Below are positions 5,519-63,317 of a stretch of 64,000 nt of DNA, piece by piece (within the stretch, counting starts at the first letter, position 1; the number at the start of each line of letters is the position of its first letter). A program made the position numbers and the translations under genes. The notes under the pieces were generated by a model. That model did not search any database and had not been told where the DNA came from. It saw only the letters and a program-made list of their open reading frames with translations. Source of the DNA: Candidatus Saccharimonadota bacterium (GTDB lineage: Bacteria; Patescibacteriota; Saccharimonadia; Saccharimonadales; JAXHMH01); contig JAXHMH010000002.1 of assembly GCA_034521515.1 (NCBI GenBank), forward strand, positions 344,379-408,378. The letters run 5' to 3'.

Positions 5519-5558
5519 TTGACTTTAAGTTTAACTCGAGTTAAACTTGAACCATATG
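5519..5558 (+). promoter_or_regulatory. Promoter/operator of the Phd-VapC operon, leaderless configuration
   Basis: TTGACT (5519-5524), 17-nt spacer, TAAACT (5542-5547), then ATG at 5556, 8 nt after the -10. There is no SD. An 18-bp perfect palindrome GTTTAACTCGAGTTAAAC (5529-5546) overlaps the spacer and the -10. Confidence 0.6.
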
Positions 5559-5822
5559 AAAACTATATCTGCTAAAGAGCTGCGTGACAACCTTGGCGAA
5601 ATAACTAAACGGGTGAGCGCCGGCGAACATATCTACGTAAGCTACAGAAATAAACTGTCTTTCAAGCTAGAACCAGCGACCCCTCCAAAGCCCGCGCGTA
5701 AAAAGCTGGCTGGCCTAGAAGCCTTTTTGGCGGCACCAAAGAAGCCTTCTCAGCACAATCCGGACAAACCCGCAAAAGAAATATATCACGAGCTTCTGGA
5801 TGAAAAATATGGCTCCAAGTAA
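5556..5822 (+). CDS. Type II antitoxin, Phd/YefM family
   Basis: The N-terminus MKTISAKELRDNLGEITKRVSAGEHIYVSYRNKLSFKLEP is typical of Phd/YefM. It is small and overlaps the downstream PIN toxin gene. The ORF-track TTG at 5547 is less likely than ATG 5556. Confidence 0.75.
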   Translation: MKTISAKELRDNLGEITKRVSAGEHIYVSYRNKLSFKLEPATPPKPARKKLAGLEAFLAAPKKPSQHNPDKPAKEIYHELLDEKYGSK

Positions 5823-6198
5823 GCTGTTTTTGGATGCCAATATCCTAATAGAGATTCTAGAATCCCGGCCAAAACATAAAAAAGCGGAAAAACTGTTGCT
5901 TTCAGGTGCGGGGAATTTGCATATCTCTACCCTGACATGCCACATTGCTGCTTATGTGTCCCGAAAAAGAATTGGTCTGGAAGTACTCGAACAATTCTTA
6001 GGCGACTATATTTGGCTAGAGCTGAAACCTGAGGACATAGCTTGGGCATTTGATAACCGCCGTGACAATGACTTTGAAGACGCCCTGCAGATTGCCATGG
6101 CTGTAAGAAGTGGTTGTAGCGTGTTTTATACCCTAGATAAGCAACTCGTCAATGCCTATGCTACCTTGCCCACCCTGGAAGTAAAGTTACTCAAATAG
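5800..6198 (+). CDS. vapC: Type II toxin, PIN-domain VapC family
   Basis: PIN acidic-residue pattern: LFLDANILIE near the N-terminus, DFEDALQIAMA, and TLDKQL near the C-terminus. 132 aa, with a 23-nt overlap with the antitoxin gene. Confidence 0.75.
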   Translation: MKNMAPSKLFLDANILIEILESRPKHKKAEKLLLSGAGNLHISTLTCHIAAYVSRKRIGLEVLEQFLGDYIWLELKPEDIAWAFDNRRDNDFEDALQIAMAVRSGCSVFYTLDKQLVNAYATLPTLEVKLLK

Positions 6199-6212
6199 CA
6201 TAAGTATTTACT

Positions 6213-6240
6213 CAGCACTCTGTACTGTGTACTCTGTACT
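6213..6240. repeat. Heptad tandem tract (cagcact ctgtact gtgtact ctgtact)
   Basis: Four consecutive 7-nt units lie directly between the TA cassette and the ATG (6245) of the PrgI-like gene. Confidence 0.75.
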
Positions 6241-6244
6241 TACA

Positions 6245-7366
6245 ATGGCAACATATAAAGTAATATCAGATATCGAAGCAGAAGATAAACTGCTGGGGCC
6301 GCTGACACTCAGACAGTTTATCTATGCATGTATTGTCGTGGTATCGGGTTATATTGCATTTCGCCTTATATTTGTTAGTTGGCTGCTAGTATTGCCGCTA
6401 CTGCCAATCATGATATTTTTTGGTTTATTGGCGTTTCCATTTACCAAAGATCAACCGGCGGAAGTCTGGTTATTGGCGCGTTTGCGGTTTTTCTTAAAAC
6501 CACACTTACGAATCTGGAGCCAAGACGGCATACAAGAGCTAGTATCTGTTACTGCCCCTAAATTACCAGAAAAGCAGCTTACCAAAGACTTTTCCCAGAC
6601 CGAAGTAAAAAGCCGTCTAAGGGCTTTGGCAGATACAATTGATAGCCGTGGATGGGCAGTCAAGAACGTCAACGTTAATCTAACTGGCCAACCATCCGCC
6701 GCAAACGGTGCATCAGATCGGCTCGTCCAGGCCACGTCAACGCCTCAACCGGTTGCCGATATCGATATTGGAGCATCCGATGACATGCTGGATGAACAGT
6801 ATAACCCCCGCGCACAGTCTCTCGATAAACTCATAAACGCCTCCGGTCAAGCGCACCGGCAGCAAATAGTGCAACAGATGAAGCAGGCTCCCCAACAGAC
6901 GCAGGAACCGGCAGCTAATTACTGGTTTATGAACCAACCATCCGGACAACCGCAACCAGGCTACAACACCGGTAAAGGTACCGTAATCACGCCAGGAAGC
7001 AACGACCAAAAACCCTCAAACCAACAACCAACCACCCAAGAGGAACAAGCCTTGCTCGAGAAAATCCATAAATCAAAACAGCAGCCACAACCTGGCTCCA
7101 GTCATATCAAGACTATCCAACCCATCGATCAGAATAACCCCAATCCTGCGCAAACAACACAACCGCAACCAGAAGCTCCTAATCAAGCCAACACCCCACA
7201 ACAAGCTACTAACGAACATCCCCAAACCAGCCCCCAAAAAACACAGCCCGATCCAGCCCTATTAGAACTTGCCCATAACGACGATCTGAATGTCGAAACC
7301 ATAGCCCGCCAGGCCAACAAGCACAACGACGATGACCCGGAGGAAGTGGTAGTATCGCTACATTAA
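6245..7366 (+). CDS. PrgI-family (VirB3-like) T4SS membrane protein with long Q/P-rich C-terminal tail
   Basis: N-terminus MATYKVISDIEAEDKLLGPLTLRQFIY followed by two hydrophobic helices, the PrgI-family pattern. It lies immediately upstream of VirB4-like genes. The C-terminal ~180 aa are Q/P/N-rich low complexity. ATG 6245 is preferred over track GTG 6227 because the duplicated fragment at 5374 begins at the same ATG. Confidence 0.55.
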   Translation: MATYKVISDIEAEDKLLGPLTLRQFIYACIVVVSGYIAFRLIFVSWLLVLPLLPIMIFFGLLAFPFTKDQPAEVWLLARLRFFLKPHLRIWSQDGIQELVSVTAPKLPEKQLTKDFSQTEVKSRLRALADTIDSRGWAVKNVNVNLTGQPSAANGASDRLVQATSTPQPVADIDIGASDDMLDEQYNPRAQSLDKLINASGQAHRQQIVQQMKQAPQQTQEPAANYWFMNQPSGQPQPGYNTGKGTVITPGSNDQKPSNQQPTTQEEQALLEKIHKSKQQPQPGSSHIKTIQPIDQNNPNPAQTTQPQPEAPNQANTPQQATNEHPQTSPQKTQPDPALLELAHNDDLNVETIARQANKHNDDDPEEVVVSLH

Positions 7367-7368
7367 GC

Positions 7369-7418: not shown

Positions 7419-7769
7419 CTACGATGGTAATTTACGTATAAACCCTGACAGAAGCTTACTGACTTCAATAACCTCAGAAAGCAGTTTCTTTTGATTTTTG
7501 TCGTTAAGATAACCTAAATCTTTAGCAACAATAAGCATCGACTCAACTTCAAACGCTGATCCTTTGGCAATATACAGATAGTTTCTGAGAGATTTGTTGC
7601 TTTGTTTTGCATAACCTTCGGCAATGTTGTTCATAATCGATACAGCTGCGCGTTGAATCTGATCCCTGAACCCGTAATCCTTGCATGTACTAAAAGAACC
7701 GTAAACATCTGTCGTTAATTCGCGAGCTTTTTGCCACGCAATTATGTCTTTAAATGATTCAATACCCAC
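7419..7769 (-). CDS. Four-helix-bundle protein (23S rRNA intervening-sequence protein family)
   Basis: Shows AWQKARELTTDVY, NNIAEGYAKQS and AKGSAFEVESML, signatures of the PF05635/TIGR02436 family. 116 aa, GTG start. It is antisense to the surrounding T4SS genes. Confidence 0.8.
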   Translation of the reverse strand: MGIESFKDIIAWQKARELTTDVYGSFSTCKDYGFRDQIQRAAVSIMNNIAEGYAKQSNKSLRNYLYIAKGSAFEVESMLIVAKDLGYLNDKNQKKLLSEVIEVSKLLSGFIRKLPS

Positions 7770-10703: not shown

Positions 10704-10731
10704 TTATGAGCTATGAGTGTTGAACTATGAG
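10704..10731. repeat. Heptad tandem tract (ttatgag ctatgag tgttgaa ctatgag)
   Basis: Four 7-nt units lie directly after the virB4 stop. A TGA in each unit gives stops in all three + frames. An inverted copy of the unit (ctcataa) occurs at 10945-10951 on the far side of the truncated gene. Confidence 0.65.
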
Positions 10732-10951
10732 CAAAGCAGCAGAAGGTTACGCCAAACAAATCGACCGATCTTTTAGGCGCTTTTTGCTCACTGCCAAAGG
10801 GTCAGCTTCAAAAGTGCAGTCTATGCTTATACTGGCCGATGACATACAATATACATCAGAGGAGCAACTAGGATCACGCTTCACGTTAGCGAAAGAGGCG
10901 GCAAAGATTATAGGCGGACTTAAAAATAAACTCCATTCTCAAAACTCATAA
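10727..10951 (+). pseudogene. Truncated four-helix-bundle protein gene (C-terminal ~70 aa only)
   Basis: AEGYAKQIDRSFRRFLLTAKGSASKVQSMLIL aligns with residues ~50-116 of the 7419..7769 product. About 45 N-terminal residues (helices 1-2) are missing, and only 27 nt separate it from virB4. Confidence 0.7.
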
Positions 10952-15722: not shown

Positions 15723-16785
15723 TTTTGTTTGTCGGAATAACGTGGCACTGGTCTAGAAAATGCTGCACAACGATATCAGCATCCGTGGTAGTTATAAACG
15801 TTTGATAACCAGCCAAAAACTCGGTTAACGCCATGCGCCGGGCGCCATCCAGCTCACTAAACACATCGTCAAGTAGTAGTATCGGTTTCTCATCGCGCAC
15901 TTCCTCGACCAACCGCACTTCAACAATCTTCAACCCAAGTAGTAGCGTCCGTATCTCGCCGCGCGACCCAACCTCATCCGCCGGATGATTGTCCAACGTA
16001 ATGTGCATATCGTCACGGTGAGGGCCGTACCCGGTAAAGCCACGCTGTATATCCAAGTCCTGCGTGGCTTCCAGTTTGCTCAACATCTGTGACTCATACT
16101 GATGCCCGCTACAAGCTGTTTTATACTTAACACCCACCGTAATCTTACTGTCTGACAGTTGTCGGTAGATAGTCTGGAGTTCTTGATTAATTCGGTTCAC
16201 CAGTGCCAGTCGTTCTTTAGCGATTGCACCACCTAGTTCTGCCAGCCTGATATTCCAGGCAAAAATCTGAGTGTTAACATGGCTATCGCCAGACTTTAAT
16301 AACGCATTACGTTGCGCCAACGTCCGCTTATATTGGCGGCGAAGCTGCCCGAAACCGACCACCATCTGCTCCAACATATCGTCCATAAACTCGCGCCGGC
16401 GTTCAGGTGATCCGGTAAGCAGCCGTAAATCATCCGGCTCAAACAATACAACCGGTACGGTTTTATTCAGCGACAAACGCTTGTATGTCTTATCCGCCAA
16501 AACAAAACTTTTCTGAACCCGATCGGCACCCTCTATTGTTTCTAATTTAACCGTGCGCGTCCCGTGGCTAGTAAATGCGTCGAGGCGCGACCACGGAGCT
16601 TTGTGGCGAACCAACTCACTATCCCGAGCCCTGTATGAACTACCCAGACACGCTACCAATAGCGCCTCCAGCAAATTTGTTTTACCGCTAGCGTTTGGGC
16701 CAACCACAATGTTAACCCCAGGCTCAAACTCAAAACTATCGTTATGATATGACCTAAAGTCCTGCAAGTTAAGCGCTTCAATCAC
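15703..16785 (-). CDS. recF: DNA replication and repair protein RecF
   Basis: Walker A is GPNASGKTNLLEAL and the Walker B-like motif is ILLLDDVFSELD. GTG start. It sits in the dnaA-dnaN-recF synteny. Confidence 0.9.
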   Translation of the reverse strand: MIEALNLQDFRSYHNDSFEFEPGVNIVVGPNASGKTNLLEALLVACLGSSYRARDSELVRHKAPWSRLDAFTSHGTRTVKLETIEGADRVQKSFVLADKTYKRLSLNKTVPVVLFEPDDLRLLTGSPERRREFMDDMLEQMVVGFGQLRRQYKRTLAQRNALLKSGDSHVNTQIFAWNIRLAELGGAIAKERLALVNRINQELQTIYRQLSDSKITVGVKYKTACSGHQYESQMLSKLEATQDLDIQRGFTGYGPHRDDMHITLDNHPADEVGSRGEIRTLLLGLKIVEVRLVEEVRDEKPILLLDDVFSELDGARRMALTEFLAGYQTFITTTDADIVVQHFLDQCHVIPTNKTKESVQ

Positions 16786-17158
16786 GCTTAGTCTCCCGTC
16801 GCTTGTCGCTTGTCGCTAGCTTACCAATAAACCCTGTCAGTAATTTTGAGATCTCTATTGAGATACCTGTGAATTGTTTGTACTCATTTTGATGAATTTT
16901 ATTTGCTGCTAGCGCAATATGAAGCATGGAGCGGACTTCCGCACATGAGCCACGTGCAATTACTAAAAACTGCCTAAGCTCCTTGTCCGAACTCCTGTCA
17001 AACCCTTCGGCAATATTGTTAGTGATAGATAAGCAAGCTCTCATAATCTGATCCTTAAACGATAGATCTCTCTCATACTTCAACTCCTTACTAAGCCCTA
17101 TGTATAGCTCTTCGCCTTTTTGCCAGGCAATCACATCCTCAAAATTCCTTATACGCAT
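16778..17158 (-). CDS. Four-helix-bundle protein (23S rRNA intervening-sequence protein family) inserted between dnaN and recF
   Basis: Shows VIAWQKGEELY, NNIAEGFDRSS and ARGSCAEVRSML. The C-terminal 10 aa (ATSDKRRETKRD) are encoded by a heptad tract, and the stop overlaps the recF GTG (GTGATTGA). Confidence 0.8.
   Translation of the reverse strand: MRIRNFEDVIAWQKGEELYIGLSKELKYERDLSFKDQIMRACLSITNNIAEGFDRSSDKELRQFLVIARGSCAEVRSMLHIALAANKIHQNEYKQFTGISIEISKLLTGFIGKLATSDKRRETKRD
16797..16817. repeat. Heptad tandem tract (cgtcgct tgtcgct tgtcgct) inside the 3' end of the four-helix-bundle ORF
   Basis: Three 7-nt units, stop-free on the minus strand, are translated as a C-terminal extension. Confidence 0.7.
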
Positions 17159-18580: not shown

Positions 18581-18664
18581 CAACCTACTAACTACCAATT
18601 CCTTCACCCCATCTACCATATACCAACTACTAACTACCAACTGCCATCTACCAACTACCAGCCT
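18581..18664. repeat. Heptad tandem tract, 12 units (ccaacta/ccatcta/ctaacta type) abutting the dnaA stop
   Basis: The tract is 84 nt in unbroken 7-nt register. On the minus (dnaA sense) strand the units read tagttgg/tagatgg, giving TAG in all frames. It is the same unit family as 54585-54605. Confidence 0.8.
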
Positions 18665-20299: not shown

Positions 20300-20437
20300 C
20301 TAAGCGGACAGTTTGGCGCGGCCTTTGTTGCGGCGGCGCTTTAGTACGGCACGACCGGTCTTGGTGTGCATACGCTTAATAAAACCGTGCACGCGAGCAC
20401 GCTTTCGTGTCTTTGGTTGGAACGTTCGTTTTGGCAT
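20300..20437 (-). CDS. rpmH: 50S ribosomal protein L34
   Basis: Below the ORF-track size cutoff. Reverse translation gives [45 protein letters not shown] (45 aa), a canonical L34 sequence. Confidence 0.92.
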
Positions 20438-20567: not shown

Positions 20568-20912
20568 ATGATAAGCAAAAATCATCGTTTTCACGGATAT
20601 GGCAGTCTCCGGTATGTCTATCGGAATGGTAAAACAGTTCGCGGTCCGCTCTGTTCTTTGAAGTATGTGTATAACCCAAAGCGTTCATCATATAGATTAG
20701 CAGTGGTTGTCAGCCGCAAGGTGCATAAGTCAGCCGTGGTGCGTAATCGTATACGTCGGCGAATATATGAATCAGCTCGACGGCTGGAGGATCGGTTTTT
20801 GCAGCCGCATGACATTGTGATAACCGTATTTCACGAAAATATTGCGACCATGCCGAGCGAAGAGCTTAATAAACTTATCTACGCCCAACTCAAACAAGCC
20901 AAAATTATTTAA
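20568..20912 (+). CDS. rnpA: Ribonuclease P protein component
   Basis: Shows KNHRFHGYGSLRYVYRNGKTVRG and VVVSRKVHKSAVVRNRIRRRI (RNR motif). 114 aa, upstream of yidC. TATAAT at 20554-20559 ends 8 nt before the ATG. Confidence 0.85.
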   Translation: MISKNHRFHGYGSLRYVYRNGKTVRGPLCSLKYVYNPKRSSYRLAVVVSRKVHKSAVVRNRIRRRIYESARRLEDRFLQPHDIVITVFHENIATMPSEELNKLIYAQLKQAKII

Positions 20913-20962: not shown

Positions 20963-21919
20963 ATGTTTGAAAATCTTATTGTACTGCCCATATTTAACTT
21001 GCTCGTTTTTATCTATGCAATTTTGCCAGGGCATAACTTTGGGCTCGCACTGATTATATTCACGGTTGTTGTGCGCATGCTGATGTGGCCGCTCATTAGA
21101 AAACAGCTTCATCACGCTAAAGCAATGCGTAAACTTCAACCAGAGATTAAGAAAATTAAACAGGCTACCAAGGGCGATCGACAAAAAGAGTCCATGATGC
21201 TCATGCAGCTGTACAAGGAACGTGAAGTTAGTCCGTTTAGTAGTCTCGGTGTTCTGGCAGTCCAGCTGGTTATATTCATAGGGCTCTACCAGGGTTTGAT
21301 CCGAGTTATTGAGGATCCGCAGGCGCTAATTGTGCACTCCTATAGCTGGATTGCAAACCTAGGGTGGATGCAACAACTGGCTGCCGATATCGGGCAATTT
21401 GACGCCACGCTTTTTGGACTGGTTGATTTGTCGCGGAGTGCTCTAGGATCCGGCGGTCTGTATATCCCAGCTCTACTACTAGTAATCGGTAGTGCCGCCA
21501 CACAGTATTATCAGAGCAAGCAACTCATGCCCGATGATAAAAATTCACGCGGTTTGCGGCAGATTATGCGTGAAGCCAGTGCTACTGGTAAACAAGCCGA
21601 CCAATCCGAAGTACAGGCTGCTACCGGGCGTATGATGCGCTACTTTATACCCGTTATGATATTCGTTGTTACTATTGGGCTGGCTTCAGCACTGGCGCTT
21701 TATTGGTTCACTAGCGGTATAGTTGCCTATCTCCAGCAATCTCGTATCTTAGGCCAGGATAAGGATGAGCTGGAAGAGCTAGCCCATAAAGACGACAAGA
21801 AGAACGATAAACAAAACGCCAAGAAACAAGTCATAGAAGGCGAAGTTATCCAAAAACCAAAAACCAAAAACCAAAAGACCAAAAAGACCTCCAAATCTAA
21901 AAAAAGGAGGAAACGATGA
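20963..21919 (+). CDS. yidC: Membrane protein insertase YidC (short, Gram-positive type) with lysine-rich tail
   Basis: Shows GLALIIFTVVVRMLMWPLIRKQLHHAKAMRKLQPEIKKIKQ and multiple TM helices. The basic C-terminal tail is KPKTKNQKTKKTSKSKKRRKR. It follows rnpA. Confidence 0.88.
   Translation: MFENLIVLPIFNLLVFIYAILPGHNFGLALIIFTVVVRMLMWPLIRKQLHHAKAMRKLQPEIKKIKQATKGDRQKESMMLMQLYKEREVSPFSSLGVLAVQLVIFIGLYQGLIRVIEDPQALIVHSYSWIANLGWMQQLAADIGQFDATLFGLVDLSRSALGSGGLYIPALLLVIGSAATQYYQSKQLMPDDKNSRGLRQIMREASATGKQADQSEVQAATGRMMRYFIPVMIFVVTIGLASALALYWFTSGIVAYLQQSRILGQDKDELEELAHKDDKKNDKQNAKKQVIEGEVIQKPKTKNQKTKKTSKSKKRRKR
21850..21884. repeat. Heptad tandem tract inside the yidC tail-coding region ((ccaaaaa)x3, ccaaaag, accaaaa)
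   Basis: Three perfect and two imperfect 7-nt units encode QKPKTKNQKTK. Confidence 0.75.
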
Positions 21920-22870: not shown

Positions 22871-23467
22871 TTACTTTTTGGCAGTGGAAAGAAGGTGTTT
22901 AAACCGCGAACGGAGTTTTTTCTCCGCGTCAATGTGCGATACCTCCAGATATGTAATATATCTACGCACACCAAGCGTAGTCGCGACCACTTCGATTTCG
23001 TGCCGGCACGGAAAGGGGTGTATCCAGATGCTTTTTTGTAGCTGTTTAAACCCGAGCTCGCGGAGCTTTATCGTTAGGCTTCTTCGGGCGCGATTTTTGT
23101 CAACGGGTATATCAAAAAGTACGAGGCGCCAACACTTGTCCCACGTATCAGGAGTAGGGATAGAAACATTATCATAATTAGCTTTTTGCAACCGTTTTCT
23201 GCCGCGTCTTGTAATTTGGAGACCATGTTCATAATCTTCGGCAGTTAGGCGTATTAAACCTCGTTGCTTCATATAGTAAACTACTCTACGTAGTTCACGT
23301 TCGCGTTCGCGTTCATCGAGCTTTTCGAGCATCTTTCTAGTTGGTTTGTCGACAGCTGGTAAGGCTAGTGGCGACAGAAAAGCAATACTAATCATCCCGC
23401 CGGCTGCCACAAATCGTAGCAGCCCGTCTACAATCGCGCTGGTGGTATCTTTGTTGGTTTGCTTCAT
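22871..23467 (-). CDS. PaaX-like / Cas2-fold putative transcriptional regulator
   Basis: WRLVLFDIPVDKNRARRSLTIKLRELGFKQLQKSIWIHP matches the ferredoxin-like (Cas2-like) core of PaaX C-terminal domains. The preceding YYMKQRGLIRL...GLQITRRGRKRL is wHTH-like. There is an N-terminal hydrophobic segment. Confidence 0.45.
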   Translation of the reverse strand: MKQTNKDTTSAIVDGLLRFVAAGGMISIAFLSPLALPAVDKPTRKMLEKLDERERERELRRVVYYMKQRGLIRLTAEDYEHGLQITRRGRKRLQKANYDNVSIPTPDTWDKCWRLVLFDIPVDKNRARRSLTIKLRELGFKQLQKSIWIHPFPCRHEIEVVATTLGVRRYITYLEVSHIDAEKKLRSRFKHLLSTAKK

Positions 23468-28826: not shown

Positions 28827-29924
28827 TTATTTTATAACCGATTTATAAACGGCTAAGGTTTGTTCGGCCATTCTCTTCCACGAATACTTTTTAACCTGAG
28901 CGTAGCCCTTGCTTATGAGAGATTTACGCAGCCCAGTATCTTCAATAACCTCAGCAATTTTTTCGGCCATGTCTGCCGGTTCGTTGGGGTCAAAGTAATG
29001 CGCAGCGTCACCATAAACTTCCGGCAAACTGGTCGCATTGCTAGAAACCACCGGGCAGCCGTGCACCATCGCCTCTAACCCTGGCAGGCCAAACCCCTCG
29101 CTTAAAGACGGGAACACATACGCTTCGGCGTTTTGATACAACCATTTGAGCTCTTCATCAGGTATAAAGCCAGTAAGCACGACGTTTGAGATGTTATTTT
29201 CGCCGATATGATCCGCCAGTTTATCGTAGTATTGCTCTTGTTTGCCGGCTAGAACCAGCATCAAATCCGGACGGCGTTCTTGCAGCATCATAAACGCATC
29301 AACCAGCTTATCAAGGTTTTTGTGAGGGAACGCCGTGCCGACATAAAAAATAAACGGACGTTTAATACCTTCAGGTATCATCGTCTCGGTATCTAGCGGT
29401 GGCTCGCTGGCGCAGTGCGTGACCGTCACTTTGCCATCAGTAAATGGGTAGTGAGTTTGAAGATCCTTTTTAACGAACTTGCTGATAGTAATAATGTGTT
29501 TGGAGCGTTTATTGCCCAGCCAAAACAAGAACCGATAGGCCGCCATTTTGAGCCAGAATATCGGCAACGGTGTTTTGCCGGGGCGAGTAAAACGCAGCAT
29601 GGTTAAATCCATGGTGGTGGTGACGGATGGGCGCCAATAAAAAATTGGCTGGGCGTTAGTCGTAAAATGCACTAAATCGGCCTTGAGCTTATAGAGCTGC
29701 CGGGCAAACCCCAGTTCATGTAACGGGTTAAGCGAGAACTGTCCGTACTTTGTCTTAGCAACGCTGAAGTTGGAAGATTTTGGCTGCCACGGATCGTCTT
29801 GCTGCAAGAGGAATGTATAACGGTTGGTTTTATCTATATTTTGCAGATGTTCAACCAATCTATCTATGTAGCGGCCGGTGCTGCTACGTCGAATTCGTCC
29901 ATCTATAACAATATGCTTACTCAT
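28827..29924 (-). CDS. Glycosyltransferase, GT4 family
   Basis: C-terminal FPSLSEGFGLPGLEAMVHGCPVVSSNATSLPEV (EX7E-type GT4 motif); 365 aa. Confidence 0.8.
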   Translation of the reverse strand: MSKHIVIDGRIRRSSTGRYIDRLVEHLQNIDKTNRYTFLLQQDDPWQPKSSNFSVAKTKYGQFSLNPLHELGFARQLYKLKADLVHFTTNAQPIFYWRPSVTTTMDLTMLRFTRPGKTPLPIFWLKMAAYRFLFWLGNKRSKHIITISKFVKKDLQTHYPFTDGKVTVTHCASEPPLDTETMIPEGIKRPFIFYVGTAFPHKNLDKLVDAFMMLQERRPDLMLVLAGKQEQYYDKLADHIGENNISNVVLTGFIPDEELKWLYQNAEAYVFPSLSEGFGLPGLEAMVHGCPVVSSNATSLPEVYGDAAHYFDPNEPADMAEKIAEVIEDTGLRKSLISKGYAQVKKYSWKRMAEQTLAVYKSVIK

Positions 29925-30258
29925 TTTTTAGCGGTCCAAATACGTCTACAATATTTTTGCAGACCTTTCGTTTAGTAGATCCACCGATACGGCCAATTTT
30001 TCTAGTAATAAGCCCAGGGTCGGCTGTAAAAATCTTATCTGGTCGCACAAAGCTGATGCGGTTTAAGCCGCTATTATCAGTTTTGCCGTCAATCTGTACA
30101 GACGCGCCAGTTATCGGTGGCTTGCTGGTAATTTGGCAGACAATGACATTATCAAAATCAGAAAGTGCAGCAACTAAGACTGGCCTAACCTTTGAGCTTT
30201 GCAAGCCCGAGAAAGGGAAACGAACAAGCAGAACGTCTCCTACTGCAAATGTGCCCAT
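29917..30258 (-). CDS. mazF: Type II toxin, MazF/PemK family
   Basis: GDVLLVRFPFSG...KVRPVLVAA and ISFVRPDKIFTAD are typical of PemK/MazF. It overlaps the MazE-like gene upstream and the GT4 start downstream. Confidence 0.75.
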   Translation of the reverse strand: MGTFAVGDVLLVRFPFSGLQSSKVRPVLVAALSDFDNVIVCQITSKPPITGASVQIDGKTDNSGLNRISFVRPDKIFTADPGLITRKIGRIGGSTKRKVCKNIVDVFGPLKNE

Positions 30259-30479
30259 GCCTCATCCTCTTCCGGGTTATTCCAGTCACTGAGAGTTGCT
30301 TCGCTCAGCAGTGCCATTTCGCGAGCCGACATACCCTCAAAGCCGATATCTGATTTTATAACAATGGTGTTATTGCTAACTTCTAGCAGAACCTTATCAC
30401 CCAAATTAGTCTGTTCTAGAATCGCTTTAGGGATTCTAATGCCTTTGGAGTTGCCGATTCTAACAATTTTTGTACGCAT
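30240..30479 (-). CDS. mazE: Type II antitoxin, AbrB/MazE/SpoVT family
   Basis: MRTKIVRIGNSKGIRIPKAILEQ is a swapped-hairpin AbrB-type DNA-binding motif. Confidence 0.75.
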   Translation of the reverse strand: MRTKIVRIGNSKGIRIPKAILEQTNLGDKVLLEVSNNTIVIKSDIGFEGMSAREMALLSEATLSDWNNPEEDEAWAHLQ

Positions 30480-30488
30480 AGTAATTAC

Positions 30489-30517
30489 ATTGTAATTACA
30501 TACGCATTACTTGTCAA
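30489..30517 (-). promoter_or_regulatory. Promoter of the mazEF-like operon
   Basis: On the minus strand: TTGACA (30517-30512), 17 nt, TACAAT (30494-30489), then ATG 9 nt downstream. There is no SD. A GTAATTAC direct repeat overlaps the -10. Confidence 0.55.
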
Positions 30518-30533: not shown

Positions 30534-30794
30534 TCATCTGTAGAGTTTGCTGTGCGTTCCTATCAGCTTAAAGAGTATCAGTTCATCATCCATTTCTATA
30601 TAGACAGCTCTAATGTCACCGCCTATATTAATGCTGTATAAACCAGTATATTTACCCTTCAAAACATGACGGCGTAGTTGCGCATGATCAGGATTTTGGA
30701 TAAATAGTTCAAGTCGCTCCCAGAAACGTTTTTGCTCGTTTTTCTTGAGTGCCTGAAACTGTTTCTTGAAACGCCTAGTGTATCTAATCGTCAT
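30534..30794 (-). CDS. Type II toxin, RelE/YafQ family
   Basis: MTIRYTRRFKKQFQALKK...LRRHVLKGKYTGLYSINIGGDIRAVYIEMDDELILFKLIGTHSKLY follows the RelE/YafQ pattern. It is a paralog of 55098..55364. Confidence 0.75.
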   Translation of the reverse strand: MTIRYTRRFKKQFQALKKNEQKRFWERLELFIQNPDHAQLRRHVLKGKYTGLYSINIGGDIRAVYIEMDDELILFKLIGTHSKLYR

Positions 30795-31071
30795 TGGCTG
30801 CTTCCAGCCATCGCTTCATGTTTTTAGTGTCATGCACTTCAAACGCAGGGGATAGTTTGCCTTTTGCGATATCCTCAAACGATTCATCGAGCAGTTTTTC
30901 AAGTTGTGGCGTAATAGGTTCAGCAGGCAGGGTAACAGCGTTGCCTTGGGCAAAGCTGTACAGTTGGGTGTGGAGGACGCTACTCAGGGGCACGCCAAGT
31001 TTTTTGGCGCGTTTTTGAGCCAGAGCTTTAAGCTTGGGGTCTACTTTGAAGTTAATTACAGCTGTTTTCAT
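30784..31071 (-). CDS. Type II antitoxin, RelB/DinJ family
   Basis: The real start is ATG at 31071 (MKTAVINFKVDPKLKALAQKRAKKLGVPLSSVL, RHH-type). The track ORF extends to 31404 through non-coding-looking sequence. Confidence 0.7.
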   Translation of the reverse strand: MKTAVINFKVDPKLKALAQKRAKKLGVPLSSVLHTQLYSFAQGNAVTLPAEPITPQLEKLLDESFEDIAKGKLSPAFEVHDTKNMKRWLEAANDD

Positions 31072-31078
31072 ATCTAAA

Positions 31079-31106
31079 AGTATACACATTATATACACTT
31101 TGTAAA
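31079..31106 (-). promoter_or_regulatory. Promoter of the relBE-like operon
   Basis: On the minus strand: TTTACA (31106-31101), 16 nt, TATACT (31084-31079), then ATG 7 nt downstream. There is no SD. Confidence 0.55.
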
Positions 31107-54410: not shown

Positions 54411-54724
54411 TAATAGGAAATAGGAAATAGGAAATAGGAAATAGGAAATAGGAAATAGGAAATAGGAGTTGGGAGGGGTGAGACTAGAGACTAGAGACTA
54501 GAGAATTGATAGTTAATAGATGATAATTAATAGGTGATAGATAATAGGTGAGAATTGATAGTTGATAGGTGATGGAAGGTGGAAGATGGTAGTTGGTAGG
54601 TGGTAGGCGGGGTGGTGAGACTTGAGACTAGAGACGTGAGGGGTGATAGATAATAGGTGAGAATTAATAGATGATAGGGGGTGGAAGTTGTCAGTGGGCT
54701 GTGGTCTGTTGTCAGTTGTCTGTC
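54411..54724. repeat. Heptad tract of ~45 phase-locked 7-nt units in several sequence blocks
   Basis: The blocks are: (aaatagg)x8 perfect at 54411-54466; gagacta x3 plus one degenerate unit at 54480-54507; gatagtt/aataggt-type units; gatggta/ggtggta-type units; acttgag/actagag/acgtgag; and gtcagtg/gtctgtt/gtcagtt/gtctgtc. The tract was parsed by hand with no register loss. Confidence 0.9.
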
Positions 54725-54774
54725 CACAACCTGTTCACTGACGACTGATTACGGGCTACTAGCGAATGCTACAA

Positions 54775-54813
54775 TTGACATAAATCCTTCCGTTATATAT
54801 ACTTTGGTATATG
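54775..54813 (+). promoter_or_regulatory. Promoter of the DinJ/YafQ-like operon, leaderless configuration
   Basis: TTGACA (54775-54780), 17 nt, TATACT (54798-54803), then ATG at 54811, 7 nt after the -10. There is no SD. Confidence 0.6.
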
Positions 54814-55101
54814 AAAACCGATGATAGTAAGAACACCATCTTAAACATTAAGTTAAGCAAATCGCTAAAGCTAGAGGCTCAAAGTATTGCCAAAGAAATG
54901 GGCATACCGCTAACTACTGTCGTTAAGGCCGGCCTTAACGACTTTGTTAGAAGTAGATCGGTCACTTTATCTACATCTCCTAAACTTAAGCCAGAAGTTG
55001 AGCGTAAACTAGTTGAAGCGGCGCAAGAAGCCAGACAAGGAAAGAATATATCTGACAAGTTCACTACACTAGAAGAAGGATTCGACTGGCTGGATGCATG
55101 A
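54811..55101 (+). CDS. Type II antitoxin, RelB/DinJ-like
   Basis: 96 aa. ILNIKLSKSLKLEAQSIAKEMGIPLTTVVKAGLNDFV is RHH/DinJ-like. There is a 4-nt overlap with the toxin gene. Confidence 0.65.
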   Translation: MKTDDSKNTILNIKLSKSLKLEAQSIAKEMGIPLTTVVKAGLNDFVRSRSVTLSTSPKLKPEVERKLVEAAQEARQGKNISDKFTTLEEGFDWLDA

Positions 55102-55364
55102 TCGAAGATATTCGTTATTCCAAAAAGTTCAAGAAACAGTACAAAAAGTTACCATTTAAAATCCAACAACGGACAAAAGAGCGCATTAGGTTGCTTTATG
55201 AAGATCCGTTTAATCCTATTTTGAAGCACCACATACTATCAGGTAATCTCAGGGGCGTACATAGTATAAATATAACCGCCGATTACAGAGCGCTTTACAT
55301 AGAAATAAACAATAAGAAAATAATGTTCGATATGATAGGGGCTCACTCACAATTGTATAAATAG
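55098..55364 (+). CDS. Type II toxin, RelE/YafQ family
   Basis: IRYSKKFKKQYKKL...LKHHILSGNLRGVHSINITADYRALYIEINNKKIMFDMIGAHSQLY. It is a paralog of 30534..30794. Confidence 0.75.
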   Translation: MIEDIRYSKKFKKQYKKLPFKIQQRTKERIRLLYEDPFNPILKHHILSGNLRGVHSINITADYRALYIEINNKKIMFDMIGAHSQLYK

Positions 55365-55382: not shown

Positions 55383-55501
55383 TAGGAGGTAGTAGATGGG
55401 GGCGGTGAGACTAGAGACGTGAGACTAGAGACTAGAGACTTGAGACTTGAGACTAGAGAGGTGAGGGGTGATAGATGATAGTTAATAGATGATAGTTAAT
55501 A
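55383..55501. repeat. Heptad tract of ~17 units (ggtgaga ctagaga cgtgaga ... gatgata gttaata)
   Basis: A gagac-type block is followed by a gata/taata-type block, forming the spacer between two TA cassettes. Confidence 0.85.
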
Positions 55502-55518: not shown

Positions 55519-55556
55519 TTGACAGCATGCCGTCATGACGGTAAAATGGCATCATG
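55519..55556 (+). promoter_or_regulatory. Promoter/operator of the RHH/RelE operon, leaderless configuration
   Basis: TTGACA (55519-55524), 17 nt, TAAAAT (55542-55547), then ATG at 55554, 6 nt after the -10. A 12-bp palindrome CCGTCATGACGG (55530-55541) lies in the spacer. Confidence 0.6.
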
Positions 55557-55784
55557 ACTAAAAAAACTACTCTTTATCTGGATCCGAGCCTGTATAAAGG
55601 CATAAAGTTACGCGCCGTGGAAACTGGCCAATCGGTTTCTGCCCTAATGAACGAAGCTCTGCGTGATCAGCTGAGTGAAGATTTGTCGGATATCACCAGC
55701 ATCAGAAACCGCCTTGCCAAAAAAGACAAGCCTTTGACCTATGACCAAGCGCTGAGTGAGCTTAAGAGAGATGGCCTCATATAA
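55554..55784 (+). CDS. Type II antitoxin, ribbon-helix-helix (CopG-like)
   Basis: MTKKTTLYLDPSLYKGIKLRAVETGQSVSALMNEALRDQL shows the RHH pattern. Confidence 0.7.
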   Translation: MTKKTTLYLDPSLYKGIKLRAVETGQSVSALMNEALRDQLSEDLSDITSIRNRLAKKDKPLTYDQALSELKRDGLI

Positions 55785-56031
55785 CGTTCTGATCCTGCCA
55801 GTTGTTATCAAAAAGGATTTGCCTAAAATTCCTAAGAACGACGTTCGCAAAATCATGAGCCGTATTGAATCACTTGGCGAAAACCCCCGACCAGATTGGT
55901 CTAAAAAGCTGTCTGGCAGAGAGGAATACCGAGCTAGGTCAGGCAACTACCGGATACTGTATGTCATTGATGACGGCATAAAGATTGTGCAAGTAACTAA
56001 AGTCAGAGATCGCAAGAAAGTATATAAATGA
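55771..56031 (+). CDS. Type II toxin, RelE/ParE family
   Basis: YRARSGNYRILYVIDDGIKIVQVTKVRDRKKVY. ATG 55771 overlaps the antitoxin 3' end; the track start at 55756 is less likely. Confidence 0.7.
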   Translation: MASYNVLILPVVIKKDLPKIPKNDVRKIMSRIESLGENPRPDWSKKLSGREEYRARSGNYRILYVIDDGIKIVQVTKVRDRKKVYK

Positions 56032-56053: not shown

Positions 56054-56186
56054 GTAGACGCATGAGACATGAGACTGGAGACTAGAGACATGAGACGTGA
56101 GACTAGAGACTAGAGGGGTAATAGATGATAGGTAATAGGTAATAGGTAATAGATAATAGATGATAGGTAATAGGTAATAGATGATG
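56054..56186. repeat. Heptad tract of ~19 units (catgaga ctggaga ctagaga ... ggtaata gatgata)
   Basis: A gagac-type block is followed by ggtaata/gataata/gatgata units. The cysQ ATG codons (56181-56189) lie in the last units. Confidence 0.85.
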
Positions 56187-56951
56187 ATGGATAAATTACT
56201 AGAGCAAGTTATAGGGATCGCGCAGCAAGCCGGGGACGCCATTATGGAGGTTTATCACTCTGATGAGCACGGTGTAGAAACAAAAGAAGATGATTCACCG
56301 CTCACCATTGCCGATAAAGCGGCCAACGACATCATTGTGCGGGAGCTAGAAAAAATATCTAAACTCCCGATTATTTCTGAAGAAAACGAGCAACGCGAAG
56401 GTGCAGACACCTTCTGGTTAGTAGATCCGTTGGATGGTACCAAGGAATTCATTAAGAAAAACGGCGAATTTACCGTTAATATCGGGCTTATTCATAATAA
56501 AAAGCCGATACTTGGCGTGGTATACGCACCGGACAAAGGTGTGACTTACGTTGGCTCCGAGGCTGGTGCTTTCAAATATGAGGCCGGTCAAGAAACCAAA
56601 ATTACCGCGCACCATGATGAGGCGATGCCAACAATCGTCGCTAGCCGTTCGCACCGTGACGAACGAGTCGATGCGCTACTTGAGAATATTGGCGAGCACA
56701 AGATTGTGAGTATGGGATCATCCTTCAAACTATGCCTCGTAGCGGACGGTACAGCCATGCTATATCCGCGCTTAGCTCCGACCTACCTATGGGATACGGC
56801 TGCAGCCGATGCAGTTGTACGGGCGGCAGGCGGGAGAGTGCAAAACCTGGCTGGCGAGGATTTGACGTATGACCCAGCAAAAGATATGAAAAACCCATTT
56901 TTTGTGGTTAGTACTAAAAACTGTATTGATTGGCAAAGATACTTAGGCTAA
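56181..56951 (+). CDS. cysQ: 3'(2'),5'-bisphosphate nucleotidase CysQ (PAP phosphatase)
   Basis: Inositol-monophosphatase-family motifs ISEE and WLVDPLDGTKEF, with C-terminal WDTAAADAVV. 256 aa. Confidence 0.8.
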   Translation: MMMDKLLEQVIGIAQQAGDAIMEVYHSDEHGVETKEDDSPLTIADKAANDIIVRELEKISKLPIISEENEQREGADTFWLVDPLDGTKEFIKKNGEFTVNIGLIHNKKPILGVVYAPDKGVTYVGSEAGAFKYEAGQETKITAHHDEAMPTIVASRSHRDERVDALLENIGEHKIVSMGSSFKLCLVADGTAMLYPRLAPTYLWDTAAADAVVRAAGGRVQNLAGEDLTYDPAKDMKNPFFVVSTKNCIDWQRYLG

Positions 56952-60140: not shown

Positions 60141-60386
60141 CTATAAGCCTTTGTAAGTTTTATCGTTTCTGCGGTCTATGCGAATAATATGCATTTTTGA
60201 GGCCGATTTGCGGTAAACAATACGTAGACGCCCTTTACGGACACGGAATAAATCAGAGTGCCCTCTGAGCTGTTTTATATCTAGACCTTCTGTATCGTCT
60301 AGCTTTAAGCGCAAGATAAGTAATTTGATAAGCTCGCGTTCTTTAGGGGACAGTTTGGCGAGGAGTTTTGTTATTTTGTCGACCAT
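60141..60386 (-). CDS. Type II toxin, RelE/ParE-like
   Basis: LRGHSDLFRVRKGRLRIVYRKSASKMHIIRIDRRNDKTY. It lies downstream of a Phd-type antitoxin gene. Confidence 0.6.
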   Translation of the reverse strand: MVDKITKLLAKLSPKERELIKLLILRLKLDDTEGLDIKQLRGHSDLFRVRKGRLRIVYRKSASKMHIIRIDRRNDKTYKGL

Positions 60387-60398
60387 GAAGATTAAGCC

Positions 60399-60629
60399 CT
60401 AAAGTTTGGCTAGTATTTCGTCTGCTGGAACGCCGTCAGGGTTGAGTTGTGTAAAATCGGCAATAGTTTGCCAATCTCCCTCGTCGCCCACCGGGTTAAT
60501 CTGAAATATCGGCTTAGATCGTTTAACTACCGTGAAGCTCTGGCCTTGGGCAATAGCCTCGATATATTTTGGGAACTGTTCCCGCAATTCTTTGAGGCTA
60601 ACTGTGTTGTTGGGTGTCATCTTACTCAT
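60399..60629 (-). CDS. Type II antitoxin, Phd/YefM family
   Basis: VSLKELREQFPKYIEAIAQGQSFTVVKRSKPIFQINP. Confidence 0.7.
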   Translation of the reverse strand: MSKMTPNNTVSLKELREQFPKYIEAIAQGQSFTVVKRSKPIFQINPVGDEGDWQTIADFTQLNPDGVPADEILAKL

Positions 60630-60636
60630 GCCACGA

Positions 60637-60665
60637 AGTTTAACTTAACGTTAACCTGTAGTCAA
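60637..60665 (-). promoter_or_regulatory. Promoter/operator of the Phd/RelE operon, leaderless configuration
   Basis: On the minus strand: TTGACT (60665-60660), 17 nt, TAAACT (60642-60637), then ATG 7 nt downstream. A palindrome TTAACGTTAA (60645-60654) lies in the spacer. The hexamers are the same as in the Phd promoter at 5519. Confidence 0.6.
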
Positions 60666-61802: not shown

Positions 61803-61926
61803 AGTATAAAAAAAGCCAGCATCGGCGGTCGGTCGAAACCTTAGGCCTATCTGGCAATGGTGATAAAAGGATTATAACGAAAAAGAGTAAAAAAAGCAGC
61901 ACTAAGCGAAAGGGAGAATCAAGCAA

Positions 61927-62682
61927 ATGAAGAAAGTTATCGCGTTTGATCTGGACGATACGTTAGCAGTCACAAAATCACCAATTACTGACCGAATGGC
62001 GGAGCTGCTGGGCGAATTATTAGAAACGCATCAGGTTTGTGTGATTTCTGGGGGCAACTTCGAACAATTTAAAAAACAAGTGGTAGACAACTTGCCAATT
62101 GAGCACCACTTGTTACTTAACATGCACCTTATGCCGACATGTGGCACACGGTATTATCGGTTTAACGACATCAAGCAAGAATGGGTCTGTGTCTATGCTG
62201 AGGATATACCGGAAACCGACAAGAAGCGGATAATTGACGCGTTATTTTATGCAGCAGAAGAAACCGGCTATCTAGAGAAGGAACCGTACGGGGAGATTAT
62301 AGAAGATCGCCAAAGCCAAATAACCTTTTCTGCCTGTGGCCAGCAAGCTCCACCAAAAGTGAAATATGCCTGGGATCCTGACATGAAAAAACGGATGAAG
62401 ATACGTGAAAAAATTGCACCGGTGCTGACGGACTACGAGGTCCGGATTGGCGGCACGACTTCAATTGACGTCACCAAACCTGGCATTGATAAAGCTTATG
62501 GCATGGAAAAACTTATGAATGTACTAGAAGTGGGCAAAGAAGAAATATTATTTGTGGGCGACAAATTAGAAGAGGGTGGAAACGATTATCCAGTTAAAAC
62601 TATCGGCATAGAGACTATTGCGGTTGAAGACTGGGAAGATACAGCGTTGGTAGTTGAAACAATAATCAAAAGTACGCGATGA
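61927..62682 (+). CDS. HAD-IIB family hydrolase, probable eukaryotic-type phosphomannomutase
   Basis: VIAFDLDDTLA (DxDxT) and VISGGNFEQFKKQV, with C-terminal FVGDKLEEGGNDYP. It sits between manC and the PMI cupin. Confidence 0.55.
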   Translation: MKKVIAFDLDDTLAVTKSPITDRMAELLGELLETHQVCVISGGNFEQFKKQVVDNLPIEHHLLLNMHLMPTCGTRYYRFNDIKQEWVCVYAEDIPETDKKRIIDALFYAAEETGYLEKEPYGEIIEDRQSQITFSACGQQAPPKVKYAWDPDMKKRMKIREKIAPVLTDYEVRIGGTTSIDVTKPGIDKAYGMEKLMNVLEVGKEEILFVGDKLEEGGNDYPVKTIGIETIAVEDWEDTALVVETIIKSTR

Positions 62683-63182
62683 TGTCCAAAGAAGAACTAA
62701 AGCAAGTAAAAACTGAGCTTATTGAAGCGAAGGGCTACCGCATTGCCGATGTAGATGAGGAAAAGCCGTGGGGGGCGTATTTTCGGCTGGCTGATGATTG
62801 TGCAGAGCAGTTTGTGGAAGAATATTTTCCAGGCAGAACCGTAGAGGAGCTAGGGCAAGGCGGCAGTTTAAGCCCCAAGTTTTTGGTGTTTGAACCGGGT
62901 AAAAAACTGAGCCTGCAGTATCACCATAGACGGGCTGAAATATGGCGGGTTATCTCTGGTACATTAACCGCAGCTATCTCTGATACCGACCAAGAGGGTG
63001 AGTGGAAAGAATATACTGCCGGCGAAGAATTATCCTACGGAGCTGGTGTGCGTCACCGCGCCGGAGCACCAGAAGGGGGTGAATGGGTGGTTGTAGCCGA
63101 AATCTGGCAACACACTGACCCAGACAACCCAACCGACGAATCAGATATAGTCCGCCTAGCCGATGACTTCGGCCGCGCATAA
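62679..63182 (+). CDS. Cupin, type II phosphomannose isomerase C-terminal-domain-like
   Basis: EKPWGAYFRL, and PGKKLSLQYHHRRAEIWRVISG (cupin motif 1). Confidence 0.6.
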   Translation: MMSKEELKQVKTELIEAKGYRIADVDEEKPWGAYFRLADDCAEQFVEEYFPGRTVEELGQGGSLSPKFLVFEPGKKLSLQYHHRRAEIWRVISGTLTAAISDTDQEGEWKEYTAGEELSYGAGVRHRAGAPEGGEWVVVAEIWQHTDPDNPTDESDIVRLADDFGRA

Positions 63183-63201
63183 GTTTAGCCAGACATTCAT
63201 T

Positions 63202-63250
63202 GAATAGTTGATAGATAATAATTGCTATTTGAGACAGGAAGTTGTTACAA
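63202..63250. repeat. Short heptad tract (gaatagt tgataga taataat tgctatt tgagaca ggaagtt gttacaa)
   Basis: About seven degenerate 7-nt units of the same families (gata, gagac, ggaagtt) lie immediately upstream of the VapBC promoter. Confidence 0.5.
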
Positions 63251-63278
63251 AGAACGTCCTTGTACAGTGGGGTTTAGA

Positions 63279-63317
63279 TTGACAAAATGCAGGCATGCAT
63301 GCTATCATGCCTGCATG
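63279..63317 (+). promoter_or_regulatory. Promoter/operator of the VapBC operon, leaderless configuration
   Basis: TTGACA (63279-63284), 18 nt, TATCAT (63303-63308), then ATG at 63315, 6 nt after the -10. A 10-bp inverted repeat, TGCAGGCATG (63288-63297) and CATGCCTGCA (63306-63315), spans the spacer, the -10 and the start. Confidence 0.6.

Follow-up and report, generated by a model that had tools for sequence, protein, structure and literature searches.

The stretch considered here, 64,000 nt of contig JAXHMH010000002.1 (assembly GCA_034521515.1) from a Candidatus Saccharimonadota bacterium, hereafter 'the window', encodes seven toxin–antitoxin (TA) modules of type II and raises the question of how they are expressed: whether from promoters set so close to the antitoxin start codon that the messenger RNA (mRNA) would begin at or next to the AUG, as a preliminary description had proposed, and, if so, whether such an arrangement belongs to the cassettes or to their host. 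The evidence assembled below makes it likely that each TA operon has its own sigma-70-type promoter, gives a leaderless or near-leaderless antitoxin mRNA, and uses inverted repeats at the promoter as operators for autorepression. The seven promoters are as follows, the gap being the distance between the -10 hexamer and the ATG.

Module 1, 5519..5558 (+): -35 TTGACT 5519-5524; spacer 17 nt; -10 TAAACT 5542-5547; gap 8 nt; ATG at 5556.
Module 2, 30477..30517 (-): -35 TTGACA 30517-30512; spacer 17 nt; -10 TACAAT 30494-30489; gap 9 nt; ATG at 30479.
Module 3, 31069..31106 (-): -35 TTTACA 31106-31101; spacer 16 nt; -10 TATACT 31084-31079; gap 7 nt; ATG at 31071.
Module 4, 54775..54813 (+): -35 TTGACA 54775-54780; spacer 17 nt; -10 TATACT 54798-54803; gap 7 nt; ATG at 54811.
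Module 5, 55519..55556 (+): -35 TTGACA 55519-55524; spacer 17 nt; -10 TAAAAT 55542-55547; gap 6 nt; ATG at 55554.
Module 6, 60627..60665 (-): -35 TTGACT 60665-60660; spacer 17 nt; -10 TAAACT 60642-60637; gap 7 nt; ATG at 60629.
Module 7, 63279..63317 (+): -35 TTGACA 63279-63284; spacer 18 nt; TGc-extended -10 TATCAT 63303-63308; gap 6 nt; ATG at 63315.

Re-read from the sequence, all seven -35/spacer/-10/ATG strings of the preliminary description proved exact in coordinates, spacers and gaps, and its remark that these starts are without a Shine–Dalgarno (SD) motif holds, no SD-like motif being present upstream of any of the seven antitoxin ATGs. The leaderless signature, in which an AUG start without an SD follows the -10 hexamer at ~6-9 nt, is present at 7/7 antitoxin starts, and the seven TA promoters match the consensus at 9-11 of 12 positions. 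The promoters of the two Phd-type modules, 1 and 6, had been credited with identical hexamers and a common core; both hexamers are indeed identical, and the stretch AGTTAAACTT is common to the two. The genes that follow these promoters are:

Module 1, 5556..6198 (+): Phd-type antitoxin 5556-5822; PIN (VapC) toxin 5800-6198; overlap 23 nt.
Module 2, 29917..30479 (-): MazE/AbrB antitoxin 30240-30479 (Pfam PF04014); MazF/PemK toxin 29917-30258 (PF02452).
Module 3, 30534..31071 (-): RelB/DinJ-like antitoxin 30784-31071; YafQ/ParE-family toxin 30534-30794.
Module 4, 54811..55364 (+): RelB/DinJ-like antitoxin 54811-55101 (TIGR02384 E=8e-8); YafQ-family toxin 55098-55364 (PF15738).
Module 5, 55554..56031 (+): ribbon-helix-helix (RHH) antitoxin 55554-55784 (PF01402); ParE/RelE toxin 55771-56031 (PF05016).
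Module 6, 60141..60629 (-): Phd-type antitoxin 60399-60629 (weak Phd match); putative toxin of 81 aa, 60141-60386.
Module 7, 63315..63981 (+): FitA-like RHH antitoxin 63315-63587 (PF22513); PIN (VapC) toxin 63589-63981 (PF01850 E=4e-19).

Type II identity is given by Pfam or NCBIfam matches for six of the seven pairs, the module 6 toxin being the exception: no Pfam or NCBIfam model matched this putative toxin, which contains a short RelE-like motif (G..RI.Y) seen also in the module 5 toxin. In module 1 the antitoxin has a sub-threshold match to PF02604 that is aligned from residue 1, together with NCBIfam phd_fam, and the toxin matches PF01850 (E=9e-12); module 3 was assigned from TIGR02384 (E=9.5e-6, sub-threshold) and PF15738 (E=8e-11), with homologues that align from residue 1. 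The Phd antitoxins of modules 1 and 6 are paralogues with 29% identity in the DNA-binding half, and an NCBI protein encoded in a metagenome-assembled genome (MAG) of a 'Candidatus Saccharibacteria bacterium' has the same sequence as the module 7 VapC. The positions of the antitoxin starts, on which all distances depend, are anchored by Pfam profiles that begin at the first residues and by homologues that align from residue 1; an independent gene call, for which a public contig of the same genome (L001) served, gives the same antitoxin starts for modules 5, 6 and 7, and agrees on ATG 55771 as the start of the module 5 toxin, which overlaps its antitoxin by 14 nt. A 206-aa version of the module 3 antitoxin open reading frame (ORF; 30784-31404) was rejected because the extension overlaps a divergent Wzy-like gene and because homologues begin at ATG 31071. 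From module 1 to module 7, the antitoxin–toxin distances are -23, -19, -11, -4, -14, +12 and +1 nt.

The promoter pattern was defined as a -35 hexamer with at least 4/6 matches, a spacer of 16-18 nt, TAnnnT with at least 4/6, a total of at least 9/12, a gap of 5-10 nt and an ATG, with the chance expectation taken from first-order Markov simulations of the window. The full pattern occurs 19 times on the two strands together against 11.8 +/- 4 expected, so the pattern alone is weak evidence; at 10 or more of 12 matches it occurs six times against 1.7 expected, and five of these six are TA starts. As the background rate is ~0.6-1% per ATG, its presence at 7/7 antitoxin starts is not chance, and the non-random part is the placement of the pattern on antitoxin starts. 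The preliminary description had set its reading against the case of a spacing equally common before random ATGs, and the answer is divided: the bare pattern is common by chance in the window, whereas its placement on the seven antitoxin starts is non-random. The density of promoter-like sites (48 per 20 kb against 35 in shuffles) and the ~12 full patterns expected per window would favour an over-reading of chance matches in AT-rich intergenic DNA; such a reading is faced by the figures for antitoxin starts just given and is contradicted by deep conservation among homologues, described below, and is considered extremely improbable.

From the observed geometry, its statistics and its conservation, we infer a course of expression that runs from transcription start through leaderless translation and translational coupling to repressor binding. 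Transcription by RNA polymerase would begin on the A of the AUG itself or 1-3 nt 5' of it: as the -10 hexamer lies at -12 to -7, the 6-nt gap of modules 5 and 7 would put +1 on the A of the AUG, and gaps of 7-9 nt would give a predicted 5' untranslated region (5'UTR) of 0-3 nt. A 5'UTR of 0-5 nt is the common range by which leaderless transcripts are defined. With no SD on the mRNA, ribosomes would recognise the 5'-terminal AUG directly when translating the antitoxin, and the toxin would probably be translated by coupling, which is proposed because the toxin gene overlaps or abuts that of the antitoxin. The antitoxin or the TA complex would then bind the repeats at the spacer, the -10 and +1 and turn the promoter off, as in standard type II autoregulation, with promoter, operator and translation start packed in ~40 bp. 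Such a unit would be inherited with the cassette across phyla in the family of module 7, and conserved across the Candidate Phyla Radiation (CPR) for the MazEF, YafQ and RHH/RelE types of modules 2, 4 and 5.

Candidate operators were sought as inverted repeats, scored by the longest perfect arms in the region -45 to +6 against random or shuffled 51-mers, of which 31-44% have arms of 5 nt and 8-15% arms of 6 nt, the probability of an arm of at least 9 nt being 0.006. The best arms in modules 1-7 measure 11, 9, 5, 6, 6, 5 and 11 nt, against 3-5 nt at 14 non-TA promoters (Mann–Whitney p = 1e-4); at that background probability, the repeats of modules 1, 2 and 7 are highly significant singly. In module 1, a 22-nt perfect palindrome, AAGTTTAACTCGAGTTAAACTT (5527-5548), spans the spacer and the -10. 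The inverted repeat GTAATTACA/TGTAATTAC of module 2 (9-nt arms, 30499-30481), overlooked by the preliminary description and the most conserved of all the repeats, overlaps the -10 and stops 2 nt short of the ATG. In module 7, ATGCAGGCATG (63287-63297) is paired with CATGCCTGCAT (63306-63316) in 11-nt arms, the right arm overlapping the -10 plus the first two bases of the ATG. Shorter repeats are found in module 4 (ATATAC/GTATAT, 6-nt arms, reaching from the -10 to the ATG), in module 5 (palindrome CCGTCATGACGG, 55530-55541, within the spacer, marginal by its own length and kept in the relative L100) and in module 6 (palindrome TTAACGTTAA, 60654-60645, at chance level on its own), and module 3 has only a 5-nt inverted repeat, also at chance level. 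All four palindromes that had been quoted beforehand are present, that of module 1 being in fact 22 nt long and the arms of module 7 11 nt; the reading of such repeats as operators is supported in part, by significance in modules 1, 2 and 7 and by conservation in module 5, is marginal for module 4 and has only chance-level repeats to go on in modules 3 and 6. Overall, likely operators are to be seen in the inverted repeats over the spacer and the -10, which in modules 2, 4 and 7 also overlap the start region.

An antisense promoter-like site (TTGTCA-17-TATAGT-6-ATG, 10/12 matches, 5555-5590, minus strand) lies in the antitoxin gene of module 1, inside its first 35 nt, and reads back into the module 1 palindrome; the ORF after its ATG has only four codons, and the site may be a chance occurrence or an antisense start.

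For module 2, a MazF alignment searched against metagenomes gave 80 loci of G+C content 0.32-0.47, mostly from groundwater, 70 of them usable and 55 unique. Among the 55 unique relatives TTGACA is found in 50, a 17-nt spacer in all 55 and TACAAT in 52, with GTAATTAC invariant and followed by 1-2 nt and then the ATG, giving a gap of 9 or 10 nt, although protein identity is only 42-52%. Information content is near-maximal in the -35, the -10 and the putative operator, against 0.11 bit 5' of the -35 and 0.55 bit for the third positions of codons, a pattern that is the signature of selection on the promoter–operator–start unit as predicted here. In module 4, six of seven relatives (one from Doudnabacteria) keep the -10 at 6-9 nt from the ATG; one relative, at locus L164 (2150-2230), has ~47 nt inserted from the conserved TATATACT -10 region to the ATG, with no obvious SD. 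A relative of module 5 (L100/L103, 64-69% identity) keeps TTGACG-17-TAAAAT-6-ATG and the palindrome CGTCATGACG, and the same design is seen in two further CPR modules, a module 3-like pair and an unrelated Phd/RelE pair, met by chance in the same contigs. The preliminary description's central proposal, that the promoters are placed for leaderless translation, is supported by this record, the hexamers behaving like real promoters of leaderless or nearly leaderless mRNAs with a predicted 5'UTR of 0-3 nt: the relatives of modules 2, 4, 5 and 7 share with them the hexamers, the 17-nt spacer and the distance to the ATG, whereas the DNA 5' of the -35 is not conserved and the proteins are only 35-50% identical.

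These data also bear on the suggestion that transcripts start further upstream, as SD-less leadered mRNAs with an A/U-rich, unstructured leader, the boxes being parts of operators or fortuitous. The -10 boxes of modules 1, 2 and 7 are embedded in repeats, and the unusual ribosomes of CPR bacteria, with the anti-SD missing in about half of Parcubacteria and a shortened bS1 (PMC9297842), make SD-independent leadered initiation plausible there. Set against this, the 0.11 bit 5' of the -35 in the 55 MazE relatives indicates that no alternative upstream promoter is conserved; the position of TTGACA exactly 17 nt from the -10 is conserved, which operator symmetry cannot account for; and modules 3, 4 and 6 have divergent genes or repeat arrays upstream. 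An upstream start is therefore judged quite improbable.

Whether leaderless or near-leaderless antitoxin expression would be peculiar to the TA operons is a separate matter, and the rest of the window argues that it would not. Of 68 gene starts in a census of the window, 24 are preceded at 6-9 nt by the end of a TANNNT, where 5.5 would be expected from 1852 other ATGs, and the leaderless layout would accordingly be the host's normal mode; only seven of the 24 leaderless-type starts belong to TA operons. Among the remaining ones are those of glycosyltransferases, an ABC-2 permease, two 23S_rRNA_IVP genes and the following:

rpmH (L34), 20300-20437 (-): TTGACC-17-TACTAT-8-ATG, on the strand opposite to rnpA.
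rnpA, 20568-20912 (+): TATAAT-8-ATG.
yidC, 20963-21919 (+): TGcTATGAT-7-ATG.
manC: TGcTATGAT-7-ATG.

Judged by their promoters, ribosomal and core genes in this genome look leaderless too. AAGGAG-type SD motifs precede the operon-leading genes dnaA, dnaN and gmd, a Wzy-like gene and a sulfotransferase gene, as well as operon-internal genes such as jag. The preliminary description had opposed leaderless TA operons to SD-bearing housekeeping genes, a contrast that fails in this genome, since rpmH, rnpA, yidC and manC share the -10 placement; of its particulars, gmd and jag do carry AAGGAGG, but many housekeeping genes here have no SD. Comparison of -10 distances between accessory and core genes, at the scale of the window, likewise gives a mixed answer: among first-in-operon genes a leaderless-type -10 is found in 7/7 TA and ~14/32 non-TA cases (Fisher p = 0.0096), a modest TA enrichment in which the sharing of the placement by so many non-TA first genes means that the layout does not separate accessory from core.

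The same layout appears in related hosts. A strong -10 lies 6-8 nt before the ATG in 7 of 51 long ORFs of the window and in 11 of 53 in Saccharimonadales flanks; in CPR-like metagenome flanks (L082-L171) it is found in 23 of 156 unique long ORFs against 1.1 by chance, and a strong SD is not enriched there (10 against 9.0 expected). For SD motifs in host flanks a strict test with an internal-codon null was used. The counts in the CPR-like flanks suggest that a leaderless-rich, SD-poor condition is widespread among CPR bacteria, which fits the reported anti-SD loss in Parcubacteria, and the leaderless layout is apparently a normal mode of CPR bacteria in general. With much of the operon complement of Saccharibacteria apparently expressed as leaderless mRNAs, the layout of the TA modules is unexceptional in this host. 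What sets the TA promoters apart is their near-consensus -35 boxes, with scores of 5-6/6 against 1-4/6 for non-TA leaderless-type promoters (Mann–Whitney p = 1.4e-4), and their inverted repeats, the enrichment of the placement itself being modest. A TGn-extended -10 occurs in about half of the non-TA promoters and, among the TA promoters, only in module 7, although with so small a sample the difference falls short of significance; host promoters would lean on this extended -10, and TA promoters on the near-consensus -35 and the operators.

A purely host-driven layout, in which TA cassettes have adapted to gene expression in Saccharibacteria and other CPR bacteria and have no portable design, could account for much of this: for the 24 of 68 gene starts with rpmH, rnpA, yidC and manC among them, for the ~14 of 32 non-TA first genes, for the Saccharimonadales and CPR-like flanks, in each of which about one case would be expected by chance, and for the provenance of the relatives of modules 2, 4 and 5 with a conserved layout, all from CPR-like contigs. 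It leaves aside the enrichment that still separates the 7/7 TA from the other first genes and the stronger TA -35 boxes, and it meets its main difficulty in the relatives of module 7.

For these an alignment of VapC relatives was scanned against one genome per species, giving 80 loci in many phyla (host phyla taken from record titles), of which the 46 with a detectable FitA-like antitoxin directly upstream form the comparison set. TTGnnn-17/18-TAnnnT precedes the antitoxin ATG at 30 of the 46 loci, with a gap of exactly 6 nt in 29 of the 30 and an SD in none of them; 11 other loci have a GGAGG-type SD and no such promoter, so that one layout excludes the other. Represented among the 30, which span at least seven phyla, are Saccharimonadales, Myxococcota, Acidobacteriota, Planctomycetota, Verrucomicrobiota/Kiritimatiellia/Victivallales, Gammaproteobacteria (including an Enterobacterales MAG) and Bdellovibrionota. 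By antitoxin clade, the layout is found in 29 of 34 members of the QYT-motif clade, whose antitoxins have a conserved Gln-Tyr-Thr near the N-terminus, and in 1 of 12 outside it; it tracks the antitoxin clade, not the host. In non-Saccharibacteria hosts 26 of 42 cassettes have the layout, and a strong -10 lies 6-8 nt before the ATG in just 8 of 701 flanking long ORFs, so that among FitA/VapC modules this leaderless-type unit belongs to the cassette. Against a purely host-driven layout, then, stand a geometry kept in Myxococcota, Acidobacteriota, Planctomycetota, Verrucomicrobiota, Gammaproteobacteria and Bdellovibrionota where it marks ~1% of neighbouring long ORFs, and a distribution that follows antitoxin clade and not host phylum; we regard it as rather unlikely, with more in its favour than the chance or upstream-start readings.

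Two further observations concern expression mode within this family. Among loci L002, L008, L018, L025, L032, L039, L041, L043, L055, L068 and L080, a divergent FitA/VapC antitoxin clade is in every case preceded by a leader with a GGAGG SD; and L025, L039 and L002, which belong to the leaderless clade, have kept the promoter and gained an SD-containing leader of 15-30 nt, and look like conversions between the two expression modes. A plasmid tblastn search with the module 7 VapC returned just two distant cyanobacterial matches, and the cassette of the Enterobacterales MAG (L023) had no match in E. coli genomes.

The portable, self-contained design attributed to all seven cassettes in the preliminary description is thus retained in part: portability is supported for the module 7 family only, by the 26 of 42 cassettes against 8 of 701 ORFs, while conservation gives good support to the predicted operators and leaderless placement in four modules out of seven. 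Self-containment is weakened by the 3' ends, since no intrinsic terminator (a GC-rich hairpin with a T-run) was found within 70 nt 3' of the toxin stop in any of the seven operons, and since the mazF stop of module 2 overlaps by 8 nt a family-1 glycosyltransferase gene (28827-29924, minus strand; PF00534), which may consequently be transcribed from the module 2 promoter. The module 3 operon ends 16 nt from the module 2 -35. A broader proposal can be made tentatively, and we rate it a shade below an even chance: that some TA families (FitA/VapC-like and CPR MazEF) have evolved a fused ~40-bp -35/operator/-10/AUG element, in which the AUG would be both part of a half-site and +1, and which would move between phyla whatever the initiation signals of the host, the CPR being an unrecognised leaderless-rich, SD-poor lineage.

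Several points weigh against autoregulated, leaderless expression of all seven operons from promoters of their own. The raw motif is common by chance, at ~12 per window, and the TAAACT -10 boxes of modules 1 and 6 match only 4/6 consensus positions. With gaps of 9 nt in module 2 and 8 nt in module 1, a leader of 2-3 nt is to be expected, which is near-leaderless and not strictly leaderless. The repeats do not exceed random expectation in modules 3 and 6, and in modules 4 and 5, taken singly, they are marginal. In the module 7 family, the 6 nt from the -10 to the ATG form a predicted operator half-site (GCCTGC, GCAGGC or GTAGGC) whose partner lies in the spacer, which makes the ATG part of the repeat, and the fixed distance could accordingly reflect in part an operator constraint and not leaderless initiation. 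Finally, no relatives of modules 1 and 6 were found, and only one distant relative of module 3; viral contig scans with the YafQ alignment and the toxins of modules 1, 3, 5 and 6 gave no relative, and MazF and YafQ profiles run against the ORFs of the 80 module 7 loci, in a search for TA modules in non-CPR hosts, gave only two weak matches.

The closest known counterpart is that of Mycobacterium tuberculosis, in which 32 of the 37 TA pairs whose start sites have been mapped prove leaderless, as do ~25% of genes, TA pairs being over-represented in the leaderless set (PMC3898074). Both cases concern type II pairs (mostly VapBC, MazEF and RelBE in M. tuberculosis), a TANNNT -10 and an mRNA that starts, or is here predicted to start, at the start codon. 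They differ in that the mycobacterial case is built on mapped start sites and the present one on sequence and conservation, and in that mycobacterial promoters are generally without a recognisable -35, whereas the Saccharibacteria TA promoters have a near-consensus TTGACA. The predicted leaderless expression is the same phenomenon in a different, poorly studied phylum, to which consensus -35 boxes and a conserved unit are added; no earlier description of cross-phylum conservation of a promoter–operator–ATG unit was found in a limited literature search.

At the level of the genome, the group C genomes defined with GeneMarkS-2 have a Pribnow box 6-8 nt before the first genes of operons, an estimated 25-50% of operons leaderless and an SD on the rest (PMC6028130), and the window, with its TANNNT peak at 6-9 nt and an SD on other genes, looks like such a genome. 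Group C in that study is mainly Actinobacteria and Deinococcus-Thermus, and a term search of it found no Saccharibacteria or candidate phyla; leaderless mRNAs go unmentioned in the account of the missing anti-SD motif and shortened bS1 in CPR (PMC9297842), and no description of leaderless expression in Saccharibacteria, CPR or Patescibacteria was found in the literature searched.

In classical type II systems (phd/doc, mazEF, relBE and fitAB), the antitoxin is encoded ahead of a toxin gene that overlaps its own, and palindromic or repeated operators over the -35/-10 are bound by the antitoxin's N-terminal Phd, AbrB or RHH domain (PMC4803016). The present modules are alike in gene order and in toxin genes that overlap or abut those of the antitoxins, and some have candidate operators over the promoter. 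Schemes of the E. coli model systems commonly show a 5'UTR and an SD, and the modules here are unlike these in that the candidate operator reaches or includes the start codon and no leader is predicted. Small DNA-binding autoregulators of selfish or mobile elements with an mRNA starting at the AUG and operators over the promoter include lambda cI (from PRM), tetR of Tn1721 and the C genes of restriction–modification systems; these are single regulators, whereas TA modules are two-gene addiction modules.

Should the start sites be confirmed, the association of leaderless expression with TA modules would extend from M. tuberculosis to the Candidate Phyla Radiation, and for one VapBC-like family leaderless expression would be a property of the cassette and not of the host. 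A 5'-terminal AUG needs no match to the anti-SD, which could explain how an addiction module is expressed and represses itself after transfer. Units of ~40 bp such as TTGACA-N17-TACAAT-GTAATTAC-N1-2-ATG may serve as ready-made promoters, probably repressible ones, when genetic tools are built for Saccharibacteria and other CPR bacteria, and prediction of start codons in CPR genomes should take account of the -10 signal at 6-9 nt.

The window spans the origin region (dnaA, dnaN, rpmH, rnpA, yidC and jag), and Rfam and tRNA scans of it gave no match. Composite period-7 tandem arrays, (AATAGGA)8, (GAGACTA)n and (TGATAGn)n, bracket modules 4 and 5 at 54412-54727, 55405-55501 and 56061-56193; the two that flank module 5 are 82% identical over 96 nt, so that each of these cassettes sits between similar repeat blocks. 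Other heptamer arrays lie at 6209-6240, 18609-18660, 21850-21885 and 31946-32029, one of them directly after module 1, whose neighbours are type IV secretion system (T4SS)-like genes (T4SS pilin-like and PrgI family). The window further encodes one Fic/DOC protein and another that has a PaaX central (Cas2-like) domain, the T4SS-like, Fic/DOC and PaaX-domain genes being located at 409-1098 (-), 6227-7366 (+), 27510-28649 (-) and 22871-23467 (-). Small '23S rRNA intervening sequence protein' genes (PF05635) are found at 7419-7769 (-), 10727-10951 (+) and 16778-17158 (-), and at 13068-13436 in L001; one copy is truncated, and two have leaderless-type promoters, one of these with an apparent GTG start.

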